DNA of 64,000 bases, taken from assembly GCA_034722995.1 (NCBI GenBank), contig JAYEOL010000008.1, positions 9,975 through 73,974 of the forward strand, written 5' to 3'. This document shows, piece by piece, positions 10,375 through 49,979 of the stretch; positions within the stretch are counted from its first letter, which is position 1, and each line of letters starts with the position of its first letter. The position numbers and the translations under genes were made by a program. Source of the stretch: Candidatus Cloacimonadota bacterium (GTDB lineage: Bacteria; Cloacimonadota; Cloacimonadia; JGIOTU-2). The notes below the pieces were generated by a model that was not told where the DNA came from, made no database searches, and saw only the letters and a program-made list of their open reading frames with translations.

Positions 10375-10420
10375 TTTGCTTCCTTTCTAATTACTTTCCT
10401 TAAAGTTTATTAATATTTTT

Positions 10421-21019: not shown

Positions 21020-22015
21020 CTACAATATCAAATATTTCTTCTCTAAACCCTCTGCCAACTTCTTTGCTTCAATTATCTTATAATATGTTTTGCCTATACT
21101 TATTTTTACATTACTTCTGTCTCTAATTTTTGTTATATACCTTAAGAGAATTTGTGCAGATAATTTAATTTCGTCAATGTTCAACTCTTGTTTACAATTT
21201 ATCACCCCAAGAGGTCCTGGAAATCTTTCAGCTTTTAAGGTTAATAAATCATCTGTAATTAAATTGTTTAGTTTTTCATTATCACTTTTTTTGCGTCCTA
21301 AAATCAATTTTGTGTTTTCAGAAATACGAAAATGTCTGCCTACATTTAGAAATTTTATATATTTCAAGGAAAACATATCATAACTTATTAAATCCTGTAA
21401 ACGTTTGCAATAACCCTCATCAGTCAGAAGACATCCTCCAGCAGGAGATGGGTAATTAGTAATCTTAAATTCTTTTGCCAGTTCAATCTGTATTTTTCTA
21501 CTTTTGCCTTGAATATCGTATAATTCTTCTTTGTTAATCCAGCCTTCCCTAATAGGTTTTGTATCTTGAAGAAGCTTTTGCGAAAGAGGTCTAATTATCA
21601 AATCTTTATATTCACAAAGTTTATCAACAGAATTTAAACCTGCAATAGATTGAGACTTTGGTCTTTGCCCCAATACTTCACCTGAAATCATAAAATCTGC
21701 ATTATATTCTTTTAGCATATCTCCTAATTTATTAAACATATATGCGTGACAATCTATGCAAGGATTTAAGTTTTTCCCATAACTATATTTTGGGCTTTTA
21801 ATGATATTTAGATATTCCTCTTCCAACTCTCTGATTTGCAATTTCAGCCCCAGCATTTCTGCGGATTTCTCTGCTTTTTTACAATCAAAAAAAGGTGATT
21901 CAAAACAAATCGGGATAACTTTGATGCCTTGCTGTTGAACAATTTTTGCGGCTAAAATACTATCTAATCCACCAGAGAATAGGGATAAAGTGGTATAGGA
22001 TTTTTTATCTTTCAT
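21020..22015 (-). CDS. PP-loop ATP pyrophosphatase (ThiI/LarE-like adenine nucleotide alpha-hydrolase) lacking a THUMP domain
   Basis: SLFSGGLDS PP-loop near the N-terminus, NPCIDCHAYMF, and ISGEVLGQRPKSQS resembling the ThiI GESLGQVASQT segment. 331 aa with an uncharacterised C-terminal ~150 aa. Confidence 0.5.
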   Translation of the reverse strand: MKDKKSYTTLSLFSGGLDSILAAKIVQQQGIKVIPICFESPFFDCKKAEKSAEMLGLKLQIRELEEEYLNIIKSPKYSYGKNLNPCIDCHAYMFNKLGDMLKEYNADFMISGEVLGQRPKSQSIAGLNSVDKLCEYKDLIIRPLSQKLLQDTKPIREGWINKEELYDIQGKSRKIQIELAKEFKITNYPSPAGGCLLTDEGYCKRLQDLISYDMFSLKYIKFLNVGRHFRISENTKLILGRKKSDNEKLNNLITDDLLTLKAERFPGPLGVINCKQELNIDEIKLSAQILLRYITKIRDRSNVKISIGKTYYKIIEAKKLAEGLEKKYLIL

Positions 22016-22066
22016 TAGGTGTAATTTTTTTAGAAATATATTAAAAATTTATAAGTTATTTTTCAC

Positions 22067-22945
22067 TTATAAGTTTTTTTTGTTTGTGCGATATTTTGCT
22101 TGTTTTTCAAGAAAAGTGGGTTGGGCATGGACATTTTTAACTTCATATTCTTTCGTCTTTAATCTATACTTCTCTTCAATACCACCTTTATTTATTCTAT
22201 CAAGAATTAGTTTATAATATTTTTCATCGATTTCAGCAGAAATGTATTGTCTATGAAGATTCTTGCATATTTCAATTTCAGAACCACTTCCACCAAAAAG
22301 TACTAAAACAATATCATTGTGCATTGTGCAAGATTTGATTAACATTTCAGAAAGCCTTTGTGGAATCTGGCAAACATGAAAGGTTTTCTCTTTACTGACA
22401 TTTTTAACTAAATCAAAATAGAACCAGTCGTATGGCATTCTCCCTTTAGAACCGTTTGCTAAATTCTTCAAGATTCGCTTATCTGTAGGATTTTTATAAG
22501 GAACTGCTACATTCTCTTTGTAAAATTTACTGTTTTTTGTTTTACGACAATGAAGTATACTTCTATGGGCTGTTGTAAAACGCTTTGGGGTGTGTCCAAC
22601 ATTAGTATTGTATGCCCAGACATAATCGGAGACCTCATAGCACGCTTTATCCAAATATTTTACCCTTAAATAAGCGTTCTGTTTAGGATAATTTATTAAA
22701 AACATATTCCCTGTATCTTTTAATACTCTCAGAGATTCTTTTGCCAACTCAATATACCATTCAATATACTCATCAAAACTTTTTGTATAAGACTTGTCAC
22801 CATACTTTATACCAACATTATAATCAGGATCACCATAAACCATATCAATGCTTTTATCTGGTAAATCTTTCAAAAGATCCATTATGTCACCTAAGAATAC
22901 TCTATCTAAGTAGTTTTTTATCGTTTTAGAATTTTCATTAGCCAT
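22067..22945 (-). CDS. beta-class DNA methyltransferase (N6-adenine or N4-cytosine)
   Basis: N-terminal DPDY (DPPY-like motif IV: YGDPDYNVG) and C-terminal FGGSGSE (motif I). This order is typical of beta-class amino-MTases (pfam01555-like). Confidence 0.75.
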   Translation of the reverse strand: MANENSKTIKNYLDRVFLGDIMDLLKDLPDKSIDMVYGDPDYNVGIKYGDKSYTKSFDEYIEWYIELAKESLRVLKDTGNMFLINYPKQNAYLRVKYLDKACYEVSDYVWAYNTNVGHTPKRFTTAHRSILHCRKTKNSKFYKENVAVPYKNPTDKRILKNLANGSKGRMPYDWFYFDLVKNVSKEKTFHVCQIPQRLSEMLIKSCTMHNDIVLVLFGGSGSEIEICKNLHRQYISAEIDEKYYKLILDRINKGGIEEKYRLKTKEYEVKNVHAQPTFLEKQAKYRTNKKNL

Positions 22946-23727
22946 TACAAGTACCTTTTGATAAGATTATACTGAGCATTTCTCAAAAATTTTATTGAGC
23001 CAATATTGTTTTCATCTGCAAAACTATAGTTATAAAGTCTAAATATTGAACTCCCCTTTTCCTTTTTTCTCAGTACATAGCAACAAGTAATTTGTTTTAT
23101 ATCCAATTTCTTTTCTTTCTTTAATATAGAATAATATTTGAAAGGATGAAATAACTGATAAACCGCAAAATTGTCAGGGAATCCATTTTTCCCTTCAAAA
23201 ATTGTTATCACTCCTCCAAGTTCCATTGTTAAATCTATTTCCATCTGAAGACTCTGTGCCATAATTTCTTCATTACCTACACAATAGGATAAACCTATCT
23301 TTGTCCGCCTAGCGTTATAGACCTTCGGATTGGCTACTATATCTTCGTAAAGAAAATCATGTATTATTCTCTGATTACTAGCTACTGATAATATATTTGA
23401 TTCACTTTTATCAAACTCATTTAATAAACTTTTGCGATATTTCCAATCAAAGATATTATCCTTGCTGATTGCTTCAAAGAGATGAAATCCATTTTTTATA
23501 CCCTTTATAAATTTATGCCTCCCCTTTCCTAAATGTAAAATAAAATAATCTTCATCTAATAAAATCCGTGGAAATTTTGAAGTATCATCAAGTTTTGTTA
23601 CATCAAAGGGATTACCAAATCCATATTTTTTACATACCTGTTTTACTAGTCCATTATCAAAAACAAAGTTGCTTTTCAGCTTGCATATTTTAAATATCTC
23701 TATTATTACATCCTGTTTTCTTCCCAT
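22945..23727 (-). CDS. hypothetical protein coupled to the MTase; candidate cognate restriction endonuclease
   Basis: Its stop overlaps the MTase start. A possible PD-(D/E)xK-like arrangement (IDLTMELGGVITIFEGK). No recognisable family. Confidence 0.3.
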   Translation of the reverse strand: MGRKQDVIIEIFKICKLKSNFVFDNGLVKQVCKKYGFGNPFDVTKLDDTSKFPRILLDEDYFILHLGKGRHKFIKGIKNGFHLFEAISKDNIFDWKYRKSLLNEFDKSESNILSVASNQRIIHDFLYEDIVANPKVYNARRTKIGLSYCVGNEEIMAQSLQMEIDLTMELGGVITIFEGKNGFPDNFAVYQLFHPFKYYSILKKEKKLDIKQITCCYVLRKKEKGSSIFRLYNYSFADENNIGSIKFLRNAQYNLIKRYL

Positions 23728-23829
23728 ATTATTAATCTCCTATTTAACAGTATCATCTCATAAATTTTGTTAAGAATTACTATTTTTCTTATTACTAAAA
23801 AAGCTAATCTATTTTCTGTCAAGGATTTC

Positions 23830-24894
23830 CTAATCAAAATTAATTTTAATTCCAAACCCGACTTTCTTTACAGAATATTCCTTTTCGTCTGACACAAAAT
23901 TTCCAGCAGGTGCAGAAACATTTCTTGTTTCAAAATTGTAAAAAACTTTTATATCAAAAATAAAAAAGAAGGGATAAATAAGACTGCCTTCAAACTTGAA
24001 TATGTTATCTTTTCTGCCAGAATGATACGGATCTGTAGAAGGTAAGTATTTAGATTGAAAAAATCTATTCTCAAATTCAAGTGATATAAATAATCTTAAA
24101 TCTTTTGCAAAATCAAGACTTTTTATTGGAATAGTGATTGCACCATAATAAATATCAGATTCATAAGATGGGTCTCTTATTTCATTCATGCCTGTAATAT
24201 CATCAAAAGCTTTATCTGCCTGTGCAAGCGATTGTTTGTAAGAGTATCTAAACTTTAATCTAAGATTCTCATAAGGAAAAATTGTAACTGCAAGTAAGTT
24301 CTTAAAATCATCTGAATCGTATTCACCAAAATATTTGTTATAATAATTCTGTGAATATTCAAACTGATACCCAAAATGAATTAAATATATCAATTTTAAA
24401 TTCAAACCAGAACGATAAATATTCTTTGAATATGAAAATTTTCTATAAATATTTTCATCGTCAAGTAGGCTATTATAATGGTTTATATAAATATGTGGAA
24501 AATAAAGGTATTTGAGTAAAATATTAAAATTTCGGCTGAAATATTGTTTTAGCTCTGCACCAAAATAGTGATAATTTTTTATGCTGTTATTCCAGAATTT
24601 GTTATACTTAAAAATTATCCTATCAATTTGTGTATGTCCTGTAATTAATCTGTGTTTAATTCCCAATTCGTGTCTAACAGATGTAACAATATCATCCACA
24701 GAGTTAATATGGAATTTGGCAGGATTTACGGAATGTTTGAAATCGTCAATGCTTTTTGACGAAAGTTTTATTATGTTGCTGTCGTAATAATTTTCTATTT
24801 CAATTTTGTTGAGCAGAGAAATATTGTTGAACTCTGCAAAGGAAGGTTCAGATATTGCAATAAAAAAAAATAAGAAAAGAACTCTCTTTATCAT
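23830..24894 (-). CDS. putative outer-membrane beta-barrel protein
   Basis: Likely start at internal Met MIKRVLFLFFFIAISEPSFA (signal peptide). The ORF extension to 24972 runs through a GC-rich hairpin. Body rich in alternating aromatic/hydrophilic residues; ends VGFGIKINFD. Confidence 0.4.
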   Translation of the reverse strand: MIKRVLFLFFFIAISEPSFAEFNNISLLNKIEIENYYDSNIIKLSSKSIDDFKHSVNPAKFHINSVDDIVTSVRHELGIKHRLITGHTQIDRIIFKYNKFWNNSIKNYHYFGAELKQYFSRNFNILLKYLYFPHIYINHYNSLLDDENIYRKFSYSKNIYRSGLNLKLIYLIHFGYQFEYSQNYYNKYFGEYDSDDFKNLLAVTIFPYENLRLKFRYSYKQSLAQADKAFDDITGMNEIRDPSYESDIYYGAITIPIKSLDFAKDLRLFISLEFENRFFQSKYLPSTDPYHSGRKDNIFKFEGSLIYPFFFIFDIKVFYNFETRNVSAPAGNFVSDEKEYSVKKVGFGIKINFD

Positions 24895-24920
24895 TCTTCT
24901 GTCACTCCACCCGTGCGTCT

Positions 24921-24946
24921 CGTTCCCAACGCCCTCGTTGGGAACG
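24921..24946. repeat. GC-rich hairpin CGTTCCCAACG-N4-CGTTGGGAACG
   Basis: Perfect 11-bp inverted repeat in an otherwise AT-rich spacer, between the 24969-25865 gene and the beta-barrel gene. Confidence 0.5.
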
Positions 24947-24968
24947 GAGAAGGAAGGAATTACATTTT

Positions 24969-25865
24969 TCATTCTTGTATCACTCCCACTGCTGATTTGT
25001 TTATATAAAATCTGAAAATCAACTCACGATTTGCGTCACAATCCTTAATAATAATATGATGCATTCCTTTAGAAAACTTAATAATATTCACATCTCCACT
25101 TGAAGGTATCTTATCTTTATAATCTGCAAAAACTGCTTTAGCAGATTTATGGGCTTCTTCCTGAAAAATAGTTAACAATTTTCCATTGTCATACAATTCA
25201 AACCGATAATTATATTTCTTCACAATTGGATTATCAAAAACTAAACGACTAATAATTTTTAACAAAACAGGACCTTCAAGGAGTAATCTTATCTCACTTG
25301 ATTTTGGAATATAATATGTATATTCTTTTTCATTAATAAGCAAAACTCTTACATCATAACTATTCTGTGGACTTATAGCAATATACTCATTTTCAATATT
25401 TTTTGTTCTTATTGTGTTATCACGAATCTTAATAAGTAATTGTTGATTTGAAATATTTTTTATAACAATATTATTGATATCTTTATCAGATTTGAATACA
25501 TATTTATTAAAGGTTGAGATTTTTTCACCTTCTAATCCTCTGGATACATCACTAACTCTGGCAGATTTTTCAACCTTCTTTTCTTCGCTATTGATAATGA
25601 ATAGATACTTATAACTCAGTTTGTAATCTTCTTCTAAAATTAGCCTTGAATATATTCGTAAACTATCTATATTTGAAGTTCTTATCTTTATTTCTTCTTC
25701 TGGAAGTATAAGAAAGTATTTTATAATTTTTCTTACTTTTGAATTGAAGATTAAAAATTCGTCTGCAGTCTTTACATAATTAATTTTTGAAGCATTATTT
25801 TTTGCAAGAACAATATTAAACATTAGGATAGCAAAAATCAATATAACTATAAATTTATTTTTCAT
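24969..25865 (-). CDS. secreted/periplasmic hypothetical protein
   Basis: Signal peptide MKNKFIVILIFAILMFNIVLA. 298 aa. Co-oriented and tightly spaced with the pgs genes. Confidence 0.5.
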   Translation of the reverse strand: MKNKFIVILIFAILMFNIVLAKNNASKINYVKTADEFLIFNSKVRKIIKYFLILPEEEIKIRTSNIDSLRIYSRLILEEDYKLSYKYLFIINSEEKKVEKSARVSDVSRGLEGEKISTFNKYVFKSDKDINNIVIKNISNQQLLIKIRDNTIRTKNIENEYIAISPQNSYDVRVLLINEKEYTYYIPKSSEIRLLLEGPVLLKIISRLVFDNPIVKKYNYRFELYDNGKLLTIFQEEAHKSAKAVFADYKDKIPSSGDVNIIKFSKGMHHIIIKDCDANRELIFRFYINKSAVGVIQE

Positions 25866-25868
25866 GGA

Positions 25869-26984
25869 CTAATCCTTGTTTGAAATATTAATTTCCTTTT
25901 CTGTAAATTTTTGCTGTTTGTGGTCAAAAAAGATTACAATTAAGATTAATATTACCATAATAGCAAGTGAAATTGCGGTAATAGTGATATTGTAATGTTC
26001 TTCCACAAAAACTTTTCCAATTCCGGGTTTAGGTAAAGGAACTGGTGCAATTGGTAAGTCATATATTTCAGCGATTTTAGGAATATCAAGTAAATGGAGA
26101 ATGGGAACTCCTTTTTCAGCAAAAAGAAACATTGTTCCCTTTACAGGAATATTTTTTGTAGAAACATGCCTATGCAGACCAGGTGATAAAAGTTTGCCAT
26201 TTATTGCATCACCAAGACTTGACAATCCACCACCGATGTTTACATATAATTTAATCTCATTATTTGAATAATTTGAAAATAGTGACATTTTTTCTTCAAT
26301 ATTTTTTTCAAGGCTATTTTCTTTTATAAATTGAATATTATTTCTTTTAATTGCTTTTATTATCAAATCTCTGCCGACTTTGCTTAATCCTCTTCCTAAA
26401 TCTCTTCCTCCACCAAGAGAAGCTGCTATACTTTTATATTGGAAAATACCTTTATTATAAAGTAATGACTCAATATCTAACCATGTAAAATCCGGGTCAG
26501 TTGTGCCAAACATAGAAGCTCCCACTGAGTTTATAATAACTAAATCTAAATCCAATACTTTGGCAGCACTCATCACTGCAATGTTTAAAGCAGGCATAGA
26601 GCCTGTGCAACTGACTGCAACCAAATCGCCCTTTTTCAATTTTGCCTTTTTAAAATAATCAACTATTACAGCAGCAAAATTTGGATTTAGTGTTGTTAGC
26701 TTTGCCAGTAAACTTCCCCTATCCGTTGTTATCTCAGTTTCTTTCTCTCCAATTAAAGCTGTCTTATTTGGGTCATTCTGCTCATCAATAAATATATTCT
26801 GATTCAACCGATATTTGCGGATTATTTCTTCAGATTCTTTCATTAATTTTGCAGAAGCAAGCTTTTCCTCAAAATACTTTTCTTTAATAAATACACGACT
26901 TTTGAAAGACCAAATGAATAGAATTATTGCTATGAGCAAAAGAATTATTAAACTTAGTTTTGATTTTGCACTTGGAATAAACAT
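25869..26984 (-). CDS. membrane-anchored protein downstream of pgsBC; tentatively a poly-gamma-glutamate system protein
   Basis: One N-terminal TM plus a C-terminal TM. Positioned immediately downstream of pgsB-pgsC, as the PGA-system accessory protein is in other PGA loci. The family assignment is from memory only. Confidence 0.4.
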   Translation of the reverse strand: MFIPSAKSKLSLIILLLIAIILFIWSFKSRVFIKEKYFEEKLASAKLMKESEEIIRKYRLNQNIFIDEQNDPNKTALIGEKETEITTDRGSLLAKLTTLNPNFAAVIVDYFKKAKLKKGDLVAVSCTGSMPALNIAVMSAAKVLDLDLVIINSVGASMFGTTDPDFTWLDIESLLYNKGIFQYKSIAASLGGGRDLGRGLSKVGRDLIIKAIKRNNIQFIKENSLEKNIEEKMSLFSNYSNNEIKLYVNIGGGLSSLGDAINGKLLSPGLHRHVSTKNIPVKGTMFLFAEKGVPILHLLDIPKIAEIYDLPIAPVPLPKPGIGKVFVEEHYNITITAISLAIMVILILIVIFFDHKQQKFTEKEINISNKD

Positions 26985-27224
26985 CTTACTCCTATGAATT
27001 ATTTGGTATCTGCTCGTAAATTGTAGAGTCCCGATGATATCGGGATCTCAATTGCTCTAAATATCATTTTAATTTAGTACAATTTATCGCAAATGAAGAC
27101 ATTTGCATTACAAATACCCAAAAAGGACTTTACGGACAGACACTATTCAGCCACGAGTTAATACAGAAATTTTCTAAATATTATGTTAAACACTTAGTGG
27201 TCTTTGTGCTCTTTGTGTTTCAAC

Positions 27225-27692
27225 TTAGCTAATCATTTTCCCGCCAAAAACAATTATTAATATAAATCTTACTATTACTGCAGCAATACCCATCACAGTT
27301 AGAGTAGGGACAATTCCCTGTCTGTCCATTGAATTTGCAATTAATCCTGGAATGATATAACCAATAACCTGAATCGTATAATTACTCGGTAATGTAAAAA
27401 ACAATCCATATGAACGTGCTACCCATCCAAATATAAAACCCAGGAGAACAGAGATCACCATCCGCCTTCTTCCATAAATAAACATAAATGAACCAAGCAA
27501 TTTAACAACTCCATAAACAATAAAACTGATCAGTAAAGTTGCAAAGATAGTCCACGGCTGATGAAGATACATTGCAATATAACCGCATACAACTATTCCG
27601 CCAGCGGCAACCCCAAAAGTTTCTAAAAAGAAAAGGCTGATAATTACCCCAAAACCAACCGAGACTTCAAACATATAAATCTCCCTTTTCAC
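27225..27692 (-). CDS. pgsC: poly-gamma-glutamate synthesis membrane protein PgsC/CapC
   Basis: 155-aa polytopic membrane protein directly downstream of pgsB, overlapping it. Size and hydropathy match CapC. Confidence 0.65.
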   Translation of the reverse strand: MKREIYMFEVSVGFGVIISLFFLETFGVAAGGIVVCGYIAMYLHQPWTIFATLLISFIVYGVVKLLGSFMFIYGRRRMVISVLLGFIFGWVARSYGLFFTLPSNYTIQVIGYIIPGLIANSMDRQGIVPTLTVMGIAAVIVRFILIIVFGGKMIS

Positions 27693-28836
27693 TGAAATAT
27701 TTTACTATAATTCTGCCATTTCCGCCAATATTTCCAATCCCAATTAATAATATTTTTCTTGATCTAACCTTTAATACTTGTTTGATAAGATTTTCTCCCT
27801 CAATCCAGCCAGGATTACAAATTTTGTCTGAATAAATTTTGTGCTTTAAAGCATAGGATTTTATTCTTGAAGTTTCCTCGCCAATCAAATAAAGCATATC
27901 AAATTCAATTTCACTAAGCATCTTAATCAACTGTTTTGAACGGAACATTCGGTCAGCGCGAGTATTTAATATAATTCCAGTATATTCAATATCTATATCC
28001 ATATTTTTTATGTAATTCATAACAAACTTCGTTGATTCAGGATCGTTGGCAGCAAAAGAATGAGCAAAATAGATTTCCTTGGTTTTATCCTTTAACAAAA
28101 ATAATTTTGTAGCTCCAATATCTGGATTGACTTTTTTCATACCATTCAGAGCAATCTCTTTTTTTACGCCACAACTTTCACAAACCTTCAAAGACAAAGC
28201 TACATTCTCCTTATGTTCAATATAAGAAAATCCTTTCATTTCATCATCTGTTATACTATTGCTTTTCATAAGTTGTATGTTAATGTCTTGCTTATCGGAA
28301 ATCTGTTTCATAAAAGGAAATAGCTTCTGCTCGGATGTAAAAGCCTTTCCATTTTTAGGTAATGTATTACATATTGATTTTGCAACATTTTTTATGCCTG
28401 GTCCCATCACATCAAGATGATCAGGTCTTATATTGGTAATCACCCCAATATCGGATTTGGTCATCTTCTGTTCAGTTATCCATTGATATTCAGGATTAAT
28501 TGCCATACATTCAAGAACCAATGCATTTATATTTCTTTTAGAAGCAAATCTGAATATCTTTAATTGTTCCCTAATATTTGCACCAAAGTATCTGACAATA
28601 GGAATTTCATTTCCATTCTCTAAAATTATTCGTGGCGCAGAACCAGTAGTTTTTGCAATTGTTTTTATGTCTCCTGCTCGTAAACCTGCTGCTATCAACC
28701 TTGTAACACTTGATTTTCCACGAGTGCCATTTACATGAATCACCAGAGGAATTCTTCCTCTATATTTTTGATGACGCCTGTATTCAAAAATGGCATAGAT
28801 TATAAATATTACCAGACTGATTGCTAATATAAGCAT
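27667..28836 (-). CDS. pgsB: poly-gamma-glutamate synthase PgsB/CapB (Mur-ligase-like amide ligase)
   Basis: IHVNGTRGKSSVTRLIAAGL P-loop and VLECMAINPEYQ match the CapB/PgsB signature. Confidence 0.8.
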   Translation of the reverse strand: MLILAISLVIFIIYAIFEYRRHQKYRGRIPLVIHVNGTRGKSSVTRLIAAGLRAGDIKTIAKTTGSAPRIILENGNEIPIVRYFGANIREQLKIFRFASKRNINALVLECMAINPEYQWITEQKMTKSDIGVITNIRPDHLDVMGPGIKNVAKSICNTLPKNGKAFTSEQKLFPFMKQISDKQDINIQLMKSNSITDDEMKGFSYIEHKENVALSLKVCESCGVKKEIALNGMKKVNPDIGATKLFLLKDKTKEIYFAHSFAANDPESTKFVMNYIKNMDIDIEYTGIILNTRADRMFRSKQLIKMLSEIEFDMLYLIGEETSRIKSYALKHKIYSDKICNPGWIEGENLIKQVLKVRSRKILLIGIGNIGGNGRIIVKYFSEKGDLYV

Positions 28837-28891: not shown

Positions 28892-29635
28892 TCATATAAT
28901 TTTTATTCTATCTTTCTCAATCCATCCACCGTTTCCAGATTGTAGTTTTATTAGAACCCAATTTTTATCAAATCTCTCAATCTTAATTTTTAATCCCTCA
29001 TGTATAGTAAAAACCTGTTGAAAGTCTTTACTGGGTCCACTATATGCAAAAACTGTTTCATCAATGATTACTGCGAAATCTTTGTTATGAAATTCATGCA
29101 ATCTTGCAACAGTAAATATTAAAAATATCATAAAAAGGATTGAAAGAATGACCATAAAAACTTTTATAACTCTTTTTGTTGACGATTTATTAGCTAAAAT
29201 TACAAGTACAATCGTAAACATTATTAAAATGAAACATATCAATACAAAGATTGCAAGCATATTTATTGAAAGAAAGTAATACATTTTTTTTAAAATATGC
29301 GACAAAAAAGTTTCTTTAGTTTCTTCCTTATCTTTAAGTCTTGATTTTAATAATTCTAAATTAAAAATAAGGTCCTTGTCTAAAGGTCTAAATTTCAATG
29401 CTTTTTCATAAAATAATCTTGCAAAACCATAATTTTCAAGCTTAAAATAAGTATTACCTAAATTATAGAACAGATTAAAATTCTTTATCCCTTTTTTCAC
29501 CAATTCTTCATAAGAATCTCTTGCTTTTTCATATTCCTGATTTTGATATGCGTTGTTAGCTTTTGAAATGTCATATCCGGCAAGTAGTTGCAAATTAATA
29601 AAAAATAAAATAATTAACAAAATTACCTTTTTCAC
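28892..29635 (-). CDS. batE: BatE-like protein (TPR, TM helix, C-terminal SH3-like domain)
   Basis: Signal peptide, TPR-like N-terminus, central TM helix. Terminal position in the bat operon. Confidence 0.55.
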   Translation of the reverse strand: MKKVILLIILFFINLQLLAGYDISKANNAYQNQEYEKARDSYEELVKKGIKNFNLFYNLGNTYFKLENYGFARLFYEKALKFRPLDKDLIFNLELLKSRLKDKEETKETFLSHILKKMYYFLSINMLAIFVLICFILIMFTIVLVILANKSSTKRVIKVFMVILSILFMIFLIFTVARLHEFHNKDFAVIIDETVFAYSGPSKDFQQVFTIHEGLKIKIERFDKNWVLIKLQSGNGGWIEKDRIKII

Positions 29636-31425
29636 TTATTTCTCCTAAACTTCATTTTGCTAATTCTGTGAATTATATCATCCAGATTAGTTAATTCCTC
29701 TCTGATTTTTTCTTCATTATATTTACTTCCACCAAAACGAGCTTGGTCTGTCATAACTAAAAAATTTTTAACATCATTGATAAGCCCTTTATCCACACCT
29801 TTATTATGGAGAACCTCAACAATGTCTTTTATCTTTGCACTTCCTGATGAAATATTAAATTTATTAGCGATATAATTTTTTAAAGCATTTTCAGCTAACA
29901 CAAAAAATTTGTCTACTTTTTGCTCTGATATACTCTTTTTAACTTTTACCATATCTTTTTGTAGAATTCTGTTTGCCATTCTTCTCATAAGATACGCTCT
30001 ATCTTGAAATCTCTTTTTTCTTTCTAAATGGTATATATACGCAAATAAAATACTTAACAAAGACATAAATACTGGTAACCAATAAACAAAATGTTGAAAA
30101 ACAAAGGGAAAATCCTTTATACTATTTTCTGTTCTAATAAAACAAATATCTAATCCTTGAATATCAATCCCTTCAGGAGTTCTATAATATTCCTTACCAA
30201 CTATTTTATTACCCGCTTGCACATTGAATTTCAGCATATCAGTTGATATTCTCTTATACTGTTTTTGCTCTGGTTCAAAGTAAGAAAATTTCAATTCTGG
30301 AATTTTGTAATCACCGGGTTCAATCGGAATAAGTATATATTTTATAATTTTTTTCCCCTGAGTTTTGTGGGAATCAGTTAGTATGTCAGAAATTTCAGGT
30401 GGAAAAGTATCAATATTGTTTATTTTTGGGAAAGAAGAAGGTTCAAACATCTTTATATTTCCTTTTCCTGAAATTGTAACTGTCAAAGTAATAGATTCAC
30501 CAGCTTTGACTTGTGTAGTGTTAAGATTTGAATTAATATGAAATTCTCCAACAGCTCCAGAAAAGTCTGGAGGCTGGTTTCGTATCGGAAAGCCCTTTGA
30601 GTCTATAATAAGTTTATTAGACCTTACATTAACCCTTTTTGTTGTGCCGAAGTCAAAAAAACTTTTGGGCTGAACTTTGTATGCACAAATCAATTCCATA
30701 GGTTTAATATGAAATTTTTCTGAATGAGTTGGAAACAATGTAAACTCACTAATTTTGTAGCAATAATATTGTAAACCATTTTTTACTTCAAGATGATACG
30801 AAATAGATTGTGCTTGATATGTTTCCTCTTTTATGAATCCTGAAAATTCAGGGAATTGTTCTGCATTTATCCCAACAAGATTTTTTCTGCTATACAATTT
30901 ATAAGTAACAATTATAGATTCGCCAATATAAGCAACTTTTTTGCTACATACAGCTTCTAAAAATATCTCTCTCCCTGTCCCTTTTGGTGAGGTTACCTTT
31001 TGTTCAATATCAAATTTTGAAGGTTTAATTTTAACCTTTATAGTTTTTGTATGATATTCTTTATTTTTATATTTTATAAGGATTGGAGGTATGGTAAATT
31101 CACCAGTCTTTAATGGTCTTAAAGTATAAATAAATTTTTTTGAGAGACTTTTACTATACTTACCATTTATAAATTCAATTGAAGTAGAACTTGAGGAAGA
31201 TTGGCTAACCACCTCAAATTGCGTTAATTGCGGAATGGTTGGTTCGGTCTTAATATCCTTTTCAGATTCAATTTCTATCGTCAAAATTAAGTTATCATCT
31301 ATACTTAATTCAGTCTTATCTACATACGAGGAAACGGTTATTTCATCGCTTTTTGCAAATGCAGATGAGAAAATAAAAACAAAAATAACAATAAATAATA
31401 CCTTTTTCATCTGAAAATACCTCAC
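29632..31425 (-). CDS. batD: BatD-like oxygen-tolerance protein
   Basis: 597-aa signal-peptide protein with a C-terminal TM helix, placed between batC and batE as in Bacteroides bat operons. Confidence 0.55.
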   Translation of the reverse strand: MRYFQMKKVLFIVIFVFIFSSAFAKSDEITVSSYVDKTELSIDDNLILTIEIESEKDIKTEPTIPQLTQFEVVSQSSSSSTSIEFINGKYSKSLSKKFIYTLRPLKTGEFTIPPILIKYKNKEYHTKTIKVKIKPSKFDIEQKVTSPKGTGREIFLEAVCSKKVAYIGESIIVTYKLYSRKNLVGINAEQFPEFSGFIKEETYQAQSISYHLEVKNGLQYYCYKISEFTLFPTHSEKFHIKPMELICAYKVQPKSFFDFGTTKRVNVRSNKLIIDSKGFPIRNQPPDFSGAVGEFHINSNLNTTQVKAGESITLTVTISGKGNIKMFEPSSFPKINNIDTFPPEISDILTDSHKTQGKKIIKYILIPIEPGDYKIPELKFSYFEPEQKQYKRISTDMLKFNVQAGNKIVGKEYYRTPEGIDIQGLDICFIRTENSIKDFPFVFQHFVYWLPVFMSLLSILFAYIYHLERKKRFQDRAYLMRRMANRILQKDMVKVKKSISEQKVDKFFVLAENALKNYIANKFNISSGSAKIKDIVEVLHNKGVDKGLINDVKNFLVMTDQARFGGSKYNEEKIREELTNLDDIIHRISKMKFRRNK

Positions 31426-31742
31426 CGCAGACCTGCCCGCCGCACAAGGCTTTGGCAGGCGGGGACACAGAGAACACAGAGATAATTTCTATTTCTTTTT
31501 TAACCTCTCATTCCCAAGCCCTCCCCAATCCGAGGAGTCGTCATGGACCACTCCATGACGAACTTAAAACCAACCACTAAATATCTTTTCCAAAGGATCT
31601 GCCCGGCTGGTATGAAATGTCAGGGAATGGTCCGTTCTTCGTAGTCCCGATAAATCGGGACGAAGGATGAATCCCTGACAGCGCATAAATTTTCACTCTC
31701 CTTTGAGTTCCGACAAGTCGGAATTGACATGTATGTTTCATA
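31426..31742. repeat. 317-bp GC-rich multi-hairpin spacer inside the bat operon (between batC and batD)
   Basis: Several strong inverted repeats: TCGTCATGG-N6-CCATGACGA, GTCAGGGAAT...ATCCCTGAC enclosing GTCCCGAT-AAA-TCGGGAC, and TTCCGAC-AAG-TCGGAA. The small ORFs here are likely spurious. Confidence 0.5.
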
Positions 31743-32486
31743 TTACCAATTTTTTTCAACAGGTTTGATTTTAGTTTTCTTTAACAATTGTTTCACTTTT
31801 TTCTTTTGGTTCTCTTTTTCCACTCGTTGCATAGCATCAAGTATTCTTTCTGCCTGCTTTAATTTTTCTTCTGACGCCTTTTGCTGTTGTTCCTGTTGTT
31901 TTTTATCTTCTCTTTTCTGCTGTTGTGGCTGCTTCTCTTGAGACTGGTCTTTTTGCTGTTCCGACTTTTGCTTTTGTTTCTGATGTTGTTCTTTCTTACT
32001 CTTATCAGATTTTTGTTTCTTATTCTGATTCTGCTGTTGCTGTTGTTTCTGAAGAAATCGCTTTGTTAGTTCATAGTTATATTTTGCATCTGCATTATCA
32101 GGATTATCTAAAAGAGAATTTTTGTAATTTTCTAATGCCTTAACATAAGCATGTTTTTGGAAATATGCGTTACCAATATTGTAATATACATTTGATTTAT
32201 CAATTTTTTCATCTGTCATACTATTTTTATATTCAGTAATGGCTTTATCATATTCCTTATCTTTATAATACGCATTGCCCAGGTTGAAATGAATATTTGT
32301 ATCATCTGGATATTCAATACTATTCTCTTTATGCAATTTTTTAGCCATTTCAACTTCTTCTTCATTATATTTACGGTTCGCTTTATTATTTTTTATCACT
32401 TTACCATAATTTAGAGCAAGTAATTGATTAGCAATTATACAAAAGAGAAGAATCAAAATTAATCTTTTTTTCATACTTTTCCTCAA
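31743..32486 (-). CDS. batC: BatC-like TPR protein with a long Q/K/E-rich low-complexity C-terminal tail
   Basis: Signal peptide, TPR repeats (NLGNAYYKDKEYDKAITEYKNS...), then ~90 aa of QKQQQQQNQNKKQK-type low complexity. Confidence 0.55.
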   Translation of the reverse strand: MRKSMKKRLILILLFCIIANQLLALNYGKVIKNNKANRKYNEEEVEMAKKLHKENSIEYPDDTNIHFNLGNAYYKDKEYDKAITEYKNSMTDEKIDKSNVYYNIGNAYFQKHAYVKALENYKNSLLDNPDNADAKYNYELTKRFLQKQQQQQNQNKKQKSDKSKKEQHQKQKQKSEQQKDQSQEKQPQQQKREDKKQQEQQQKASEEKLKQAERILDAMQRVEKENQKKKVKQLLKKTKIKPVEKNW

Positions 32487-33550
32487 CTTTTTTTTCTTTC
32501 CAGAACAAAAAACTCAATCATCAAAAGTATCAAAGCAATAAAAACGAAGTAGCGATATTGTTCCTTATATTGCGAAAATTTTTTTGTGGAAATTTTCTCC
32601 TCTTCCAACTTATTAATATCGGATAATATTTCTTTTATTTCACCTTCCCCAGCAGATACTTGGAAGAATAAACCACCAGTTTTTTGGGCAATCATCTCCA
32701 GATTTGATGCATCTAATTTAGATAACACAATATTGTTATCTTTATTTTTTAAGTAAACTTTTTTAGCGTGGGATTCCGTCTGAATAGGGATGGGTGCGCC
32801 TTTTTGAGTTCCTACACCAATAGTATAAATTATTATATTATGGTCTTTAGCTTCTTTAATCTTTGATTTGAAATCGCCCTGTAGGTTCTCTCCATCGGTA
32901 ATTAGAACAATTACTTTATTTTGAGTTTCTTTTGAAAAAAGTGGTATAGATTTATCAATTGCTGAAGCAATATCTGTACCTTCATGAGGAATAATTCCAA
33001 CATCTATCACAGAAGCAAACATCTCAAGAGCAGAATAATCAGATGTTAAAGGACACTGAATAAAACTATCTCCTGCGAATAAAACCAATCCAACTCTGTC
33101 ACCACTCAATTGATGAAGAAAAGTAATAAAAGCATTTTTTGCTCTTTGAATACGATTAGGAGATAAATCTTCTGCAAGCATACTTTTGGATACATCTATT
33201 GCTACGATAATATCTAATCCTTTTTCCTCAAAAATTTGCAATTTCCTCCCCCATTGCGGTCTTGCCGCTGCAAATATCAACAAAACTAAAACAATTATCA
33301 AAAGCACATCTTTAAAACTTCTGGATATATGTGAAATATTTAACAACAATTTTTTTTGCATTTTTGAGGACAAGAATCGTGAAAGTAATCTCATTCTTTT
33401 CTTAGCAGAAAGATACATCAAGAGAATTATTACTGGAATAATGATCAAAAATATAAAAAAGACTGAATTTCCAAAATGCATAATTATGGCAAACTTTGAA
33501 ACAAAATTTTTGAGTAAATCAGTTCTAAAACCAATAAGGCAATAGCACAA
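32483..33550 (-). CDS. batB: VWA-domain protein BatB
   Basis: Two N-terminal TM helices, then a von Willebrand A domain (DVSKSM MIDAS motif, LITDGE). Confidence 0.7.
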   Translation of the reverse strand: MCYCLIGFRTDLLKNFVSKFAIIMHFGNSVFFIFLIIIPVIILLMYLSAKKRMRLLSRFLSSKMQKKLLLNISHISRSFKDVLLIIVLVLLIFAAARPQWGRKLQIFEEKGLDIIVAIDVSKSMLAEDLSPNRIQRAKNAFITFLHQLSGDRVGLVLFAGDSFIQCPLTSDYSALEMFASVIDVGIIPHEGTDIASAIDKSIPLFSKETQNKVIVLITDGENLQGDFKSKIKEAKDHNIIIYTIGVGTQKGAPIPIQTESHAKKVYLKNKDNNIVLSKLDASNLEMIAQKTGGLFFQVSAGEGEIKEILSDINKLEEEKISTKKFSQYKEQYRYFVFIALILLMIEFFVLERKKS

Positions 33551-34491
33551 TATAGAAAATAATAAAAAAGAGCATAATATCTATAATGAATTTTTTTAGA
33601 TATTTCTGTTTTTTCTAATCTGTCAATCTCTTTCATAATCAATTTTAGTTGCTCACTATTTTGCGCTCTATTTGCATTTTTTGTGCCACTTATTTCCGCT
33701 ATTTTATTCAAGGTCTCAATATCGATGTCCAATTTTTGTGAAACATACTGTCTTCCATAAATCGGATGGTCAATTGGGATTTGCGAATATCCTTCCTTAC
33801 CCACACCAATTGGATATATTTTAATTTTCAATTCTTTAGCAAGAGTTGCTGCTGTAGTTGGATCAATTTCGCCGGAATTATTCCTCCCATCAGTAAGTAG
33901 AATTATCACCTTACTTTTTGCTTTTGAATTCCTCAAACGATTAACTGATGTTGCAATTCCCATTCCTATGGCTGTACCATCTTCCACCATACCGGTCTTG
34001 ATTTGGTCCAAGAATTTTATCAAGATGTTATGGTCAATTGTAAGTGGGCATTGAGTATAACTTTTTCCACCAAATATTACCAATCCAATTCTGTCATTAG
34101 GTCGCATAGAAATGAAATTCTTTGCTTCTTCTTTTGCCACATAAAGTCTATTATTAGGCTGAAAATCTATAGCTCGCATACTTGTTGAAACATCAATTGC
34201 TAATATTATGTCAACACCTTTGCCTTTAATCCGTGTAAATTTTTCAGGTACTGCTGGTCTTGCAAGTGCCAATACAAGCAGAGTAAAACATAAAAATCTA
34301 AAAATATACCTTAAATAATACAAAAACTTTGTCTTTATTTTATTAATATTAACAAGTCGGGACAAATTAGAAATATCAGAATATAGTAGAGATGGCCTCT
34401 TTTTTCTCTTTATCAATATCTCGTAAATTATTAATATTGGAATTAATACAAACAGCCAAAACCAGTGAGGATTAAGAAACTGTATTTTCAT
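33484..34491 (-). CDS. batA: VWA-domain protein BatA
   Basis: N-terminal TM helices, DVSTSM MIDAS motif, LLTDGRNN. Paralogous to batB. Confidence 0.7.
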   Translation of the reverse strand: MKIQFLNPHWFWLFVLIPILIIYEILIKRKKRPSLLYSDISNLSRLVNINKIKTKFLYYLRYIFRFLCFTLLVLALARPAVPEKFTRIKGKGVDIILAIDVSTSMRAIDFQPNNRLYVAKEEAKNFISMRPNDRIGLVIFGGKSYTQCPLTIDHNILIKFLDQIKTGMVEDGTAIGMGIATSVNRLRNSKAKSKVIILLTDGRNNSGEIDPTTAATLAKELKIKIYPIGVGKEGYSQIPIDHPIYGRQYVSQKLDIDIETLNKIAEISGTKNANRAQNSEQLKLIMKEIDRLEKTEISKKIHYRYYALFYYFLYCAIALLVLELIYSKILFQSLP

Positions 34492-35389
34492 TTTTTTCTA
34501 TAACTTTTGTTTTATCAATCAAATATATTAAATCATCTATAATTTTCTCAGCATCAGATAATGGAGGAATAAATTTTGCATATTTTACCTTGTCGCATTT
34601 TACTAAGATATTACAAAATTCTGTACTTTGAGGAATACTACACTTTTTTAAACATCGTCTAATTTCTGTAGTTGTAAATTCCAAAATTTTAAACTCAAAT
34701 CTATTTTCAAGATACTCACGACATATCCAGGAGATTTCAACATAATATTTTTTTATCTTTCCTTTTAAAAGAAGCTCTTTTGCTTTCAGCCTATTCAGCT
34801 TTTTCAATGCGATTATGTGAGCAGGAATAACCTTTTTCCGCTTAGGTGTAAATATTGGCTTCTTGCTTTTCGTCCTATTTATTAGAAATATAACAATAAC
34901 AATAGCAATAATGACAGCAATCGGCAAAAACAAATCCAGAAATTTAAGGTGTAAACTAACAGGTGGTTTTATATCTTTCAATTCAACACTATCATCAGTG
35001 ATTGTAGATTTCACATTTATGATAAGTGAGTCAGAAAATACACTTGAGATGTTATTATATTCTACAATTTGAAATTCCAATCCAGGAATAGTTTGTTTTC
35101 CGGTATCAAAAAAAACAGAGTTAAATTTGAAATCCGAAATACAAACACTATCTCTTTCAATTATACTTTTGTTATATGATAATATTTCAAAATTTACTGA
35201 TTTTACTTTTGTAAGAAAATTTACTGACTCTTTTAGGGAATGCTCAATAGTAACATCAAAAAAAACTCTATCGCCAATAAATATTTTTGAGGTATCAGTA
35301 AGTGTAGTATCTAAAGTTGTTTTTATATCTCTACAAAAAAGATTAGAAAATAACAACAAGGAAAGTAATAAGAAGAGAGACTGTTTCAT
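34472..35389 (-). CDS. hypothetical membrane protein of the bat operon
   Basis: 305 aa with a signal peptide and one central TM helix. Sits between DUF58 and batA, as in Bacteroides bat loci. Confidence 0.45.
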   Translation of the reverse strand: MKQSLFLLLSLLLFSNLFCRDIKTTLDTTLTDTSKIFIGDRVFFDVTIEHSLKESVNFLTKVKSVNFEILSYNKSIIERDSVCISDFKFNSVFFDTGKQTIPGLEFQIVEYNNISSVFSDSLIINVKSTITDDSVELKDIKPPVSLHLKFLDLFLPIAVIIAIVIVIFLINRTKSKKPIFTPKRKKVIPAHIIALKKLNRLKAKELLLKGKIKKYYVEISWICREYLENRFEFKILEFTTTEIRRCLKKCSIPQSTEFCNILVKCDKVKYAKFIPPLSDAEKIIDDLIYLIDKTKVIEKNENTVS

Positions 35390-36264
35390 CTAATTCGTCG
35401 TGCTCGTCTTTTAAAAAATTTTATCAGATTCTCAATATAAGGTTTATCAGTCTCAATATCTACCAAATCTATTTTCATTTTTTTCAATTCATTATTAACT
35501 AATTTGAGCTTTTCTTGTGCTAATTTATGAAAATTTTCTTGAAATTGTGGGTCACTTGTATTTATGAAGATTTCTTCATCTGTTTCTGCATCTTGAAGAT
35601 TAATCAAGCCTAATTTTGGAATATTATATTCTTTTGGGTCAAGTATCCTGATAGCAACAACATCATGTTTTTGTGCAACAATCTGTAATGTTTTGAAATA
35701 ATCTTGAGCATAAAAATCAGATATAAGGAAAATAATGCTTGTCTTTTTAGACATTTTGTAATAATATTCTAAAGCATTACTAATTGCAGTCTTTTTATTT
35801 TTAGGTGTATGGTATAATATTTCACGAACAATTCTCAAAACTGCATTTCTACCTTTTTTTGGTGGAATATATTTTTCTATTTCATTGGAGAATAGCAGTA
35901 GTCCAACTTTATCATTATTTTTAATAGCTGAAAAAGCTAATATTGCGCCGATTTCAGCTGAAATTTCCCTCTTTTGCTTAAGATTTGTACCAAATATACC
36001 TGAATTACTAACATCAATAATAAGCATTACAGTTAATTCACGAGTCTCTTCAAATTTTTTTATAAATGGATAATTAAATCTGGCAGACACATTCCAGTCA
36101 ATAAGTTTTACATTATCTCCAGGTTGATAAGCACGCACTTCTGAGAATTCTAAACCCTGTCCTTTGAAAATACTATGATATTCACCAGAAAAAAATTCAT
36201 TTACCAGACTTCTGGTTGAAATCTCAATTTTCCGAACCTGTTGTAATATCTCTTTTGGAAGCAT
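35386..36264 (-). CDS. DUF58-domain protein (MoxR-associated)
   Basis: 292 aa with a VWA-like region (IIDVSNSG). Conserved partner of MoxR ATPases. Confidence 0.65.
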   Translation of the reverse strand: MLPKEILQQVRKIEISTRSLVNEFFSGEYHSIFKGQGLEFSEVRAYQPGDNVKLIDWNVSARFNYPFIKKFEETRELTVMLIIDVSNSGIFGTNLKQKREISAEIGAILAFSAIKNNDKVGLLLFSNEIEKYIPPKKGRNAVLRIVREILYHTPKNKKTAISNALEYYYKMSKKTSIIFLISDFYAQDYFKTLQIVAQKHDVVAIRILDPKEYNIPKLGLINLQDAETDEEIFINTSDPQFQENFHKLAQEKLKLVNNELKKMKIDLVDIETDKPYIENLIKFFKRRARRIR

Positions 36265-36492
36265 TTGTAGAAAATTTCAAATTCTAAATTTCCAATGACA
36301 AACAAAATGTCAAATTTCTAATGTTTAATATCAATTTTTCTTCTCCATTTGGACCTAAGAGTAATCACTTGATAAATCAAAATTTTTATTATTTGACATT
36401 TGAAATTTGGAATTTAATTAGAAGTTTGAAATTTGTTATTTGTAATTTTTATCTGACAAATATCTTCTTAATATCTTATAAATCATAATATT

Positions 36493-37476
36493 TTAAGGTA
36501 TCTCTATCTCGTCAAATATCTTATTCACGATATCTTCTGTTGTAATATCTTCGGCTTCAGCTTCATAGGTGAGAATAATTCTATGACGAAGAACATCTTT
36601 ACCAATTTCCTTTATATCTTCAGGTGAGACATACCCTTTTTGGTCTAATAAGGCATTTGCTTTTGCAGCTCTAACCAGGTAAATTGATGCTCTTGGAGAT
36701 GCTCCATATTCAATATAATTCTCAATTTCTTTGATGCCATATTCTCCAGAATTCCGTGTAGCAAAGACTAAATTTAGGACATATTCCTTAATCTTTTCAT
36801 CCACATAAATTTCATTAACAATTTTTCGTGTTTCAAGCACATCTTCAGGTTTAATAACCTTATTAACTTTTATTTCGTGCTGGTCTGCCATACGATTGAT
36901 AATTTCTTTTTCTTCTATCTTGTCTGGGTAATCAATTTTCAATTTAAGCATAAAACGGTCAACTTGAGCTTCAGGCAAAGGATATGTTCCTTCTTGCTCT
37001 ATTGGATTCTGTGTTGCTAAAACGAGAAATGGTTCTTCAAGTTTATATGATTTTTCTCCAATTGTAACTTGTCTTTCTTGCATAGCTTCAAGTAATGCGC
37101 TTTGAACCTTTGCTGGTGCTCTATTTATCTCATCAGCAAGGATTAAATTGGAGAAAATAGGACCCATTTTAGGGGTAAAAGTTCCATTCTTTTGATTGTA
37201 TATCAGTGTCCCTGTTAAATCTGCCGGTAGTAGGTCAGGTGTAAATTGAATTCTTCTAAAATCAACACTGATAACTTGTGCTAATGTGCTCACTGCTAAT
37301 GTCTTTGCAAGACCTGGAACACCTTCCAAAAGAACATGACCATCTGCAAAAAGTCCAATAAGAAGCCTTCTAATCATATATTCCTGACCAACAATAACTT
37401 TACCAATCTCATCAAATATTATTTGGACAAAATCCGTATATTCTATTACCTTTTGAGTAATTTCCTTAATATCCAT
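36493..37476 (-). CDS. moxR: MoxR-family AAA+ ATPase
   Basis: GVPGLAKT Walker A, LILADEINRAPAKVQSALLEAMQE, and YVSPEDIKEIGKDVLRHRI C-terminal motif. Confidence 0.85.
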   Translation of the reverse strand: MDIKEITQKVIEYTDFVQIIFDEIGKVIVGQEYMIRRLLIGLFADGHVLLEGVPGLAKTLAVSTLAQVISVDFRRIQFTPDLLPADLTGTLIYNQKNGTFTPKMGPIFSNLILADEINRAPAKVQSALLEAMQERQVTIGEKSYKLEEPFLVLATQNPIEQEGTYPLPEAQVDRFMLKLKIDYPDKIEEKEIINRMADQHEIKVNKVIKPEDVLETRKIVNEIYVDEKIKEYVLNLVFATRNSGEYGIKEIENYIEYGASPRASIYLVRAAKANALLDQKGYVSPEDIKEIGKDVLRHRIILTYEAEAEDITTEDIVNKIFDEIEIP

Positions 37477-45268: not shown

Positions 45269-45272
45269 TAAA

Positions 45273-46433: not shown

Positions 46434-46472
46434 AATATAACTAAGGTAAAAAAATAATAATTAAAATAAAAA

Positions 46473-49950: not shown

Positions 49951-49979
49951 AAATTTATCAGGAAGGAATATAGCAAAAA

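Follow-up and report, generated by a model that had tools for sequence, protein, structure and literature searches.

Bacteria use poly-gamma-glutamate (PGA) in capsules, in biofilms and for osmoprotection; the polymer is also a virulence factor and is made industrially. To our knowledge, its synthesis has been worked out only in the single-membrane bacteria Bacillus and Staphylococcus. How might such a polymer leave a cell that has two membranes? The question is raised by a cluster of five genes at positions 23830-28836, on the minus strand, of the stretch of a contig, from a Candidatus Cloacimonadota metagenome-assembled genome (MAG), that is analyzed here (the whole stretch, 64 kb long, is called the window below). 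The cluster encodes the PGA synthase subunits PgsB and PgsC, a membrane protein of the TIGR04332 family and two envelope proteins of unnamed families, which we refer to as the jelly-roll protein and the barrel protein. On balance, it is probably the core of an envelope-spanning machine for PGA, or a related gamma-glutamyl polymer, in hosts with two membranes. The PgsBC synthase and TIGR04332 are known parts; what appears to be new, with functions suggested by prediction and synteny, is the widely conserved pair of the barrel and the jelly-roll protein. The literature that we searched contained nothing on an outer-membrane component for PGA or on either unnamed family.

A synthase with a different third subunit

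The initial annotation had described pgsB and pgsC followed by three co-oriented genes, and all five open reading frames (ORFs) were found in place, with matches above cut-off to TIGR04012, TIGR04011 and TIGR04332. PgsB aligns to TIGR04012 over the full length of the model (1-380 of 380) with 415.1 bits (cut-off 222.7) and carries the Mur_ligase_M domain PF08245 (44 bits, cut-off 24). PgsC, which has several hydrophobic segments, scores 122.5 bits against TIGR04011 (cut-off 96.45) and 115 bits against PF14102. The start of pgsC overlaps the stop of pgsB; an alternative ATG start at 27674 would give a protein of 149 amino acids (aa), near the length of about 150 aa of its relatives. The arrangement resembles that of PgsBCA(E)/CapBCA(D,E) of Bacillus, where equivalog-level orthologs of PgsB and PgsC are likewise encoded by adjacent, overlapping genes in the same order and a membrane-anchored protein with a large extracytoplasmic domain comes next.

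The third subunit, however, is a TIGR04332 protein here, not a PGA_cap protein (PgsA/CapA) as in Bacillus. Its gene holds the position of pgsA in the Bacillus cluster and adjoins pgsC in the window, as it does in each of the 74 fetched loci in which pgsC was detected. The initial annotation had called the product a bitopic membrane protein. Membrane anchoring stands, but hydrophobic segments lie at both ends (residues ~9-27 and 335-355), with a predicted periplasmic domain of about 300 aa between these N- and C-terminal anchors, and the protein belongs to a named family. It lacks the hallmarks of a canonical PgsA/CapA, a protein of about 380 aa that is encoded in the pgs operon and combines a PGA_cap domain with one N-terminal anchor. 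The idea that it might be a cryptic PgsA homolog was rejected, the hhalign probability against a PGA_cap protein being 0.2% and Pfam matches being absent, and a profile search of PDB returned noise only (E>0.05), with no similarity to any PDB chain. No stand-alone pgsA was found within the 64-kb window, as had been noted before. The TIGR04332 protein thus appears to replace PgsA in the operon.

Relatives of the TIGR04332 protein form 1264 clusters at 50% identity in a representative library, and a genome scan with a 15-sequence alignment found one encoded in at least 574 GTDB species genomes. Francisella, also a diderm, has a capBCA locus whose third component is annotated as a member of the same family (PMC5362203), but this locus is described as having three genes, with PGA not demonstrated for it (PMC4688374), compared with the five core genes here.

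Two unnamed envelope proteins conserved with the synthase

The two proteins that complete the cluster, of 298 and 354 aa, both start with N-terminal signal-like sequences and are 100% identical to NCBI entries U9R23_01050 and U9R23_01055, which lie on a contig of 87.9 kb. They gave zero Pfam or NCBIfam matches even at E<=10. Word-indexed searches, at the limit of their sensitivity, placed both in Cloacimonadota only (34 and 39 clusters). Profiles of the two families were then applied to the ORFs of the 80 best genomic loci and four metagenomic ones. According to record titles, from which all phylum labels were taken, the loci belong to Cloacimonadota, Bacteroidota, Ignavibacteriota (including Melioribacter roseus), KSB1, Calditrichota, Nitrospirota, Gemmatimonadota and Auribacterota, along with one 'Chlamydiae' MAG and some records whose title says just 'bacterium'. 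A contig of 4.6 kb that was binned as Armatimonadota (JAUWNO010000222.1, locus L009) also has genes for the TIGR04332, jelly-roll and barrel proteins; the TIGR04332 protein encoded there shares 67% identity with that of the window, and the contig is probably a mis-binned Cloacimonadota fragment.

Gene order is strongly conserved. Among the 73 informative loci, defined as those with at least 1.2 kb of sequence past the jelly-roll gene, the barrel gene directly follows the jelly-roll gene in 70, giving the one-strand order pgsB, pgsC, TIGR04332, jelly-roll, barrel under at least six phylum-level labels (Cloacimonadota, Bacteroidota, Ignavibacteriota, KSB1, Calditrichota and Nitrospirota). The median intergenic gaps from pgsB to the barrel gene are -6, 14, 29 and 9 nucleotides (nt). 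Outside Cloacimonadota, the median identity to the window is 23-27% for the accessory proteins and 40-47% for PgsB, PgsC and TIGR04332, and the flanking genes vary by lineage.

Several of these genes are also found fused. In four proteins of 671-693 aa (P0202, P0215, P0223 and P0235), TIGR04332 is joined to the jelly-roll protein (hhalign probability 97%, E 1e-10); P0235 lies at 8001-10052 of L166, a contig with a guanine-plus-cytosine (GC) content of 69%, and the other three look GC-rich by composition. A 734-aa protein, P0278 (L165:2489-4693), joins TIGR04332 to the barrel (99.4%, E 6e-22) at a locus without a jelly-roll gene; this contig has 3.6x coverage, and an assembly or frameshift artefact is possible. 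The order on L166 is rearranged, with a C25 peptidase gene, the barrel gene, genes for an LVIVD-repeat protein, an HGSNAT-like acyltransferase and a 289-aa protein (all described below), PgsB, PgsC and the TIGR04332::jelly-roll fusion. The persistence of this gene set despite rearrangement and across phyla argues strongly for one functional system, and the fusions support a putative physical association of TIGR04332 with the accessory proteins.

The genes had also been described as tightly spaced. This does not hold for the spacer between pgsC and the TIGR04332 gene, which measures 240 nt in the window, compared with a median of 14 nt in relatives and just ~100 nt in L005, a relative that is 91% identical. 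A search of the spacer against Rfam gave no match, and no second copy of its sequence was found in the window or in the fetched loci. A scan of the cluster for promoters and terminators returned the same counts as shuffled sequence. An internal promoter within the spacer is possible. In the Celaenobacter-like Cloacimonadota loci L006, L007, L008, L013, L015 and L018, a repeated non-coding element of ~300-560 nt occupies both the pgsC-TIGR04332 and the TIGR04332-jelly-roll spacers. The element, which is absent from the window, resembles a mobile or duplicated intergenic element; its two copies in L007 are 75% identical over 435 nt, and identity between genomes is 70-92%.

A predicted 14-strand outer-membrane barrel and its proposed periplasmic partner

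The longest ORF of the barrel gene opens at 24972 and would encode 380 aa. The start at 24894 is favored: from there, the protein begins with the signal peptide, and its 354 aa agree with the deposited protein and with the 333-354 aa of the homologs. The N-terminus, MIKRVLFLFFFIAISEPSFA followed by EF, resembles a signal peptide, and the strands have the alternating residue pattern typical of a membrane barrel. Structure prediction for the 354-aa protein gave a 14-strand barrel with a predicted local distance difference test score of 87 and a predicted template modeling score of 0.82. The prediction has the general features of outer-membrane beta-barrels, i.e., a cleavable signal peptide, a closed antiparallel barrel with an even number of strands and alternating hydrophobic residues that face the lipid, rather than those of a non-barrel or cytoplasmic protein. 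The protein is confidently predicted to be an outer-membrane-type barrel with a signal peptide. It ends in ...KINFD, with Phe at position -2, and the final residue is F in 37 and L in 20 of 73 homologs.

The top structural matches of the model are CymA of Klebsiella oxytoca and OmpG of E. coli, both large-pore monomeric 14-strand channels, and FadL is also among the closest. CymA and OmpG share the fold of the barrel but only 9-11% identity, and an assignment to either family by sequence failed, there being no common Pfam family. Moreover, both are sugar-uptake channels, whereas the barrel has highly conserved motifs in its extracellular loops. PgaA, BcsC, AlgE/AlgK and PelB, which serve polysaccharide export, combine a barrel of 16-18 strands with a periplasmic TPR scaffold. 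The barrel here is made of 14 strands, and neither it nor its two upstream partners has a TPR domain; the barrel is therefore not a member of the PgaA/BcsC/AlgE class. What the cluster has in common with PgaABCD, BcsABZC, Alg8/44/K/E and PelA-G is operon logic, with a polymerase combined with a guide in the periplasm and with a dedicated barrel. The sequences are not homologous, and the predicted product here is a polyamide made by an amide ligase, not by a glycosyltransferase.

The jelly-roll protein is consistently basic across homologs, with a median isoelectric point (pI) of 9.5 and nine K/R compared with two D/E among its conserved residues. Such a pI fits polyanion binding. The jelly-roll domains of BcsB guide cellulose, and by analogy we propose that this protein may be a periplasmic polymer-guiding adaptor.

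Taken together, these observations suggest the following mechanism. PgsB, an ATP-dependent ligase anchored in the inner membrane, and PgsC would polymerize glutamate, as their equivalog-level family membership indicates. The TIGR04332 protein, judging by its topology and invariable position, would be the third inner-membrane subunit in place of PgsA, with its domain of about 300 aa in the periplasm. There, the basic protein with two jelly-roll domains may bind and guide the polyanionic chain, as BcsB does with cellulose, and in some lineages it would be tethered by its fusion to TIGR04332. The 14-strand barrel, with predicted fold and localization, would provide the passage through the outer membrane, a channel role suggested by synteny, by fusion and by analogy with PgaA, BcsC, AlgE and PelB; it is the sole conserved outer-membrane candidate in the cluster. 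A diderm-adapted export module with an operon-encoded, porin-like protein, the proposal of the initial annotation, is thus well supported as the best reading of the locus, by the 14-strand prediction, the five-gene synteny in 70 of 73 loci and the fusions.

Type IX secretion cargo near the synthase

The relatives of the cluster bring in a second set of envelope proteins. A protein with a Peptidase_C25 domain (214 bits for the catalytic domain in the pgsB-adjacent protein) and a C-terminal sorting domain for type IX secretion (T9SS) is encoded within the flanks of 59 of 82 loci in three phyla, mostly directly upstream of pgsB and on its strand. The median length in its cluster is 1155 aa, and pgsB-adjacent examples have 1132-1268 aa. 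These pgsB-adjacent proteins form one orthologous group: those of Bacteroidota and Ignavibacteriota are 47-56% identical over 98-100% coverage, and those of Cloacimonadota are 27-30% identical to either over 80-94%. They were rejected as PorU (87.4 and 74.3 bits against NF033707, cut-off 420) and are gingipain-family T9SS cargo. Downstream of the barrel gene, 43 loci of Bacteroidota, Ignavibacteriota and KSB1 have a gene for an LVIVD-repeat protein, often followed by one for an HGSNAT-like membrane acyltransferase and one for a 289-aa protein that belongs to no Pfam family (27 loci each). The window contains neither a C25 gene nor any of these three, and therefore the Cloacimonadota version seen here is a reduced, five-gene core.

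The window does encode a PGA_cap protein, 8.4 kb from the cluster. This 1017-aa protein is the sole PGA_cap match among all window ORFs (PF09587, a calcineurin-like fold of the CapA/PgsA/MslH type; 194 bits, cut-off 27). Like the C25 proteins of the relatives, it has a type-A T9SS sorting domain (TIGR04183, 26.6 bits, cut-off 23; PF18962, 24.3 bits, under the cut-off of 27), and it carries a signal peptide and the motifs NYPNPF, IYN and GxYFY; core T9SS genes were not found in the window. The initial annotation was thus right that the only CapA-like domain of the window sits in a T9SS-secreted protein. It went on to propose that CapA activity had been relocated onto this cargo protein and might be delivered by T9SS to the cell surface, a proposal that found partial and weak support.

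In its favor, the metal-binding residues of the domain are kept. The protein has the motifs GD305, NLE345, NNH386..D389, H487, HHPH552 and SLGNF, and D11, E44, N87, H88, D91, H259 and H295 of MslH, which are essential there, correspond to its D305, E345, N385, H386, D389, H487 and H552, with N385, H386, D389 and H552 aligned directly to MslH and D305, E345 and H487 assigned by motif. All seven catalytic or metal-binding residues are invariant in three cross-phylum orthologs. In addition, at four loci from other lineages the gene that precedes pgsB is an ortholog. For L076 (Melioribacter roseus) and L070 (a Bacteroidetes MAG), it has the same architecture, is 52-53% identical over the full length and lies on the same strand as pgsB, which in L076 starts 1 nt past its stop. 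In an Ignavibacteriales MAG (L042), it is an ORF of 630 aa in which no T9SS C-terminal domain was detected, and on a metagenome contig (L155), a gene of which ortholog status alone was established.

Against it, the third-subunit slot is already taken: relocated CapA is the wrong picture because the TIGR04332 protein, rather than the 1017-aa protein, appears to replace PgsA in the operon. The latter belongs to a family of its own that is highly conserved (52-53% identity across phyla). As a rule, moreover, the relocation had to be downgraded, linkage to pgsB being rare. In 80 metagenomic loci of the orthologs, scanned with 10-kb flanks, 52 had enough downstream sequence, and pgsB lies directly downstream in one of these 52; this single locus is also the only one of the 80 with any pgs match within 10 kb. 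An ortholog that is 74% identical (L085) has no pgs gene within 10 kb upstream.

The strongest rival to a role of this protein in the system is that it is unrelated to the pgs cluster of this genome, acts on another substrate and shares the 64-kb neighborhood by coincidence. The rarity of pgs linkage and the occupied subunit slot both speak for this, as do the location of the gene inside an array of five T9SS cargo genes (7299-17966) and the genes that separate it from the barrel gene, namely proS, maf, a ThiI-like gene and a restriction-modification pair. By sequence, the PGA_cap domain matches no solved structures other than those of MslH (PDB 8GQ9), a lasso-peptide epimerase of Streptomyces that has nothing to do with PGA. 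MslH has 440 aa, is cytoplasmic and acts on a ribosomal peptide, unlike the multidomain T9SS cargo here, which scores 59 bits against the NCBIfam MslH model (cut-off 700). Coincidence fits less well with the full-architecture orthologs that sit between C25 and pgsB on the same strand, with gaps down to 1 nt (L076 and L070), or with the similarly placed ORF of L042 and ortholog of L155. On other contigs, too, the PGA_cap ortholog adjoins C25 genes that resemble the pgsB-adjacent Cloacimonadota type (34-36% identity, 74-95% coverage). We lean slightly towards an unrelated protein in this genome. A functional link to the pgs cluster is plausible but unproven, and the 1017-aa protein is possibly a surface enzyme of the PGA system, of uncertain membership.

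In many relatives, the polymer may be processed or anchored on the cell surface by enzymes that T9SS delivers, namely the C25 peptidase and, less often, the PKD-PGA_cap protein; this step is speculative for this genome. A tentative and rather doubtful extension is that PGA biogenesis in T9SS-bearing bacteria of the Fibrobacterota-Chlorobiota-Bacteroidota (FCB) group has two routes, with the TIGR04332, jelly-roll and barrel proteins forming the conduit and T9SS-delivered PKD-PGA_cap and C25 enzymes remodeling the polymer, setting its stereochemistry or attaching it covalently. The same low likelihood applies jointly to the parts of this scheme, in which the PKD-PGA_cap protein would use MslH-like epimerase or transferase chemistry, the C25 protein would carry out PorU-like transpeptidation as an analog of CapD, and the loops of the barrel would be the site of docking or handover. 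No T9SS-PGA link is described in the literature that we searched.

Evidence against an export module, and what the cluster might do instead

Several observations weigh against the cluster being an export module for PGA. Its product is a prediction, none having been demonstrated at any TIGR04332-type locus examined. In Francisella, where capA is annotated as 'poly-gamma-glutamate system protein', capBCA matter for virulence, but capB and capC were found to have no part in capsule production by the live vaccine strain (PMC5362203, PMC4688374). Three loci (L040, L045 and L064) have a jelly-roll gene and no barrel gene directly downstream, and in the window, co-transcription across the 240-nt spacer is putative and unproven. 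The barrel structure itself is a prediction. The barrel is not consistently basic (median pI 6.5); the lumen-facing residues of the window protein comprise 23 K/R and 15 D/E, an approximate estimate from strand parity. Most of the residues invariant across phyla (Table 1) are Asp, Glu or His, and they sit in predicted extracellular loops; the positions with at least 90% identity across 71 barrels fall almost entirely in loops L1, L2, L4, L5, L6 and L7. Such a pattern would suit a specific site or an enzyme as well as an anion channel; the conserved residues could form a gate or constriction or, equally, a site where surface partners dock or where catalysis takes place.

This last point leads to an alternative for the barrel, which could be an outer-membrane enzyme or anchor of the system instead of a passive pore. 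CapD of Bacillus anthracis cleaves or transfers the polymer at the cell surface, and barrels of the omptin, PagP and LpxR types act on substrates of their own. A barrel that likewise cleaves or transfers the polymer would account for the conserved Asp/Glu/His-rich loops, including the DPYHxGRxD motif at 288-296, since the extracellular loops of general porins are normally variable, and for a pI that is not consistently basic. However, the best structural matches, CymA and OmpG, are large-pore channels rather than omptin or PagP; conserved, inward-folding loops also make the constrictions and gates of specific channels; and the polymer would need another route through the outer membrane, for which the cluster has no other conserved candidate. 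We consider an enzymatic or anchoring barrel unlikely, though a genuine rival.

Still less likely, in our view, the PgsBC homologs make another amide-linked polymer or modify a surface molecule. There is no chemical evidence for these phyla, and the HGSNAT-like acyltransferase, LVIVD propeller and C25 peptidase of the relatives lack counterparts in Bacillus. Nevertheless, PgsB and PgsC exceed the NCBIfam equivalog cut-offs, and published work on Cloacimonadota has interpreted these genes as PGA synthesis genes, by genomic inference (PMC8542988). That the polymer stays in the envelope, or that the barrel imports a substrate such as glutamate or peptides instead of exporting a product, is very improbable: CymA, OmpG and FadL, which are nearest to the barrel in structure, serve uptake and Francisella capB and capC are not linked to the capsule, but the tight coupling to the synthase and the fusions to the periplasm-facing TIGR04332 protein suit a dedicated conduit better, and glutamate is made in the cytoplasm, so that PgsB needs no import route.

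Table 1. Coordinates of the cluster, of the PGA_cap gene and of neighboring genes in relatives, with conserved residues of the barrel.
Feature	Coordinates	Strand	Description
pgsB	27667-28836	minus	389 aa; amide ligase of poly-gamma-glutamate synthase; N-terminal hydrophobic anchor (residues 1-21)
pgsC	27225-27692	minus	155 aa from GTG start; small polytopic membrane subunit
Spacer pgsC/TIGR04332	26985-27224	minus	240 nt; two short hairpins, GCAAATG..CATTTGC and TCCCGAT..ATCGGGA
TIGR04332 gene	25869-26984	minus	371 aa; 'poly-gamma-glutamate system protein'; 323.5 bits (cut-off 100)
Jelly-roll gene	24969-25865	minus	298 aa; secreted or anchored; two tandem beta-sandwich (jelly-roll) domains; basic
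Barrel gene	23830-24894	minus	354-aa precursor of predicted 14-strand outer-membrane beta-barrel; signal peptide MIKRVLFLFFFIAISEPSFA
Invariant barrel residues, L1			Y37, D38, N40, S45, F52, D67, D68
Invariant barrel residues, L4			E191, Y192, D193
Invariant barrel residues, L5			D241
Invariant barrel residues, L6 and start of strand 12			DPYHxGRxD motif, 288-296 (D288, H291, D296)
Invariant barrel residues, L7			K338
PGA_cap cargo gene	12411-15464	minus	1017 aa; signal peptide, N-terminal domain, PKD, PGA_cap, C-terminal domain, type-A T9SS sorting domain
C25 genes in relatives (examples)	L001:2880-6347; L027:4527-8306; L076:224-3991
Downstream set in relatives (examples)	L027:13320-16399; L166:552-6305

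Genomic surroundings in the window

Directly upstream of pgsB and on the same strand (28892-37476) is an operon of the Bat/MoxR aerotolerance type, with genes for a MoxR AAA ATPase, a DUF58 protein, an unnamed 305-aa protein, BatA, a VWA protein, a TPR protein, BatD and a TPR-SH3 protein, in this order. The barrel gene is followed immediately downstream (22067-23727) by genes for a DUF6996/DUF6997 protein and for an N4/N6 DNA methyltransferase, likely a restriction-modification pair. The pair sits in a low-GC stretch (28.8% for 22001-24000) and is found at the same place in the relative L005, with 87% nucleotide identity.

Six genes of the window encode C-termini of the T9SS sorting-domain type, five in the array at 7299-17966 and one at 57339-59831. 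They include a C10 peptidase, three CarboxypepD_reg proteins, the PGA_cap protein and a papain-like C1 peptidase with a lectin-like domain; the cargo protein encoded at 10421-12295 has CHU_C/FlgD_ig only. On the plus strand, at 41690-57304, lies a purine cluster with purD, guaA, purN, a purM-like gene, purE, purC, an IMP cyclohydrolase-like gene and purH, followed by guaB, a purF-like gene, purL and purQ. Neither a glutamate racemase nor a gamma-glutamyl transpeptidase (CapD/GGT) was found among the scanned ORFs of the window.

Implications

The cluster is a concrete candidate for moving PGA across the outer membrane of two-membrane bacteria. It offers two candidate components, the periplasmic jelly-roll protein and the 14-strand barrel, which have neither a Pfam nor an NCBIfam model and are conserved with the synthase across several phyla. 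The full locus is present in Melioribacter roseus, a cultured and genetically approachable bacterium, which makes the question of export directly testable. The analysis also brings out an unexpected genomic link between a polymer synthase and cargo enzymes of type IX secretion, and it places the PGA_cap fold, which is poorly understood, in a new context, as it does 'capA' genes of the TIGR04332 type, such as that of the Francisella virulence locus.

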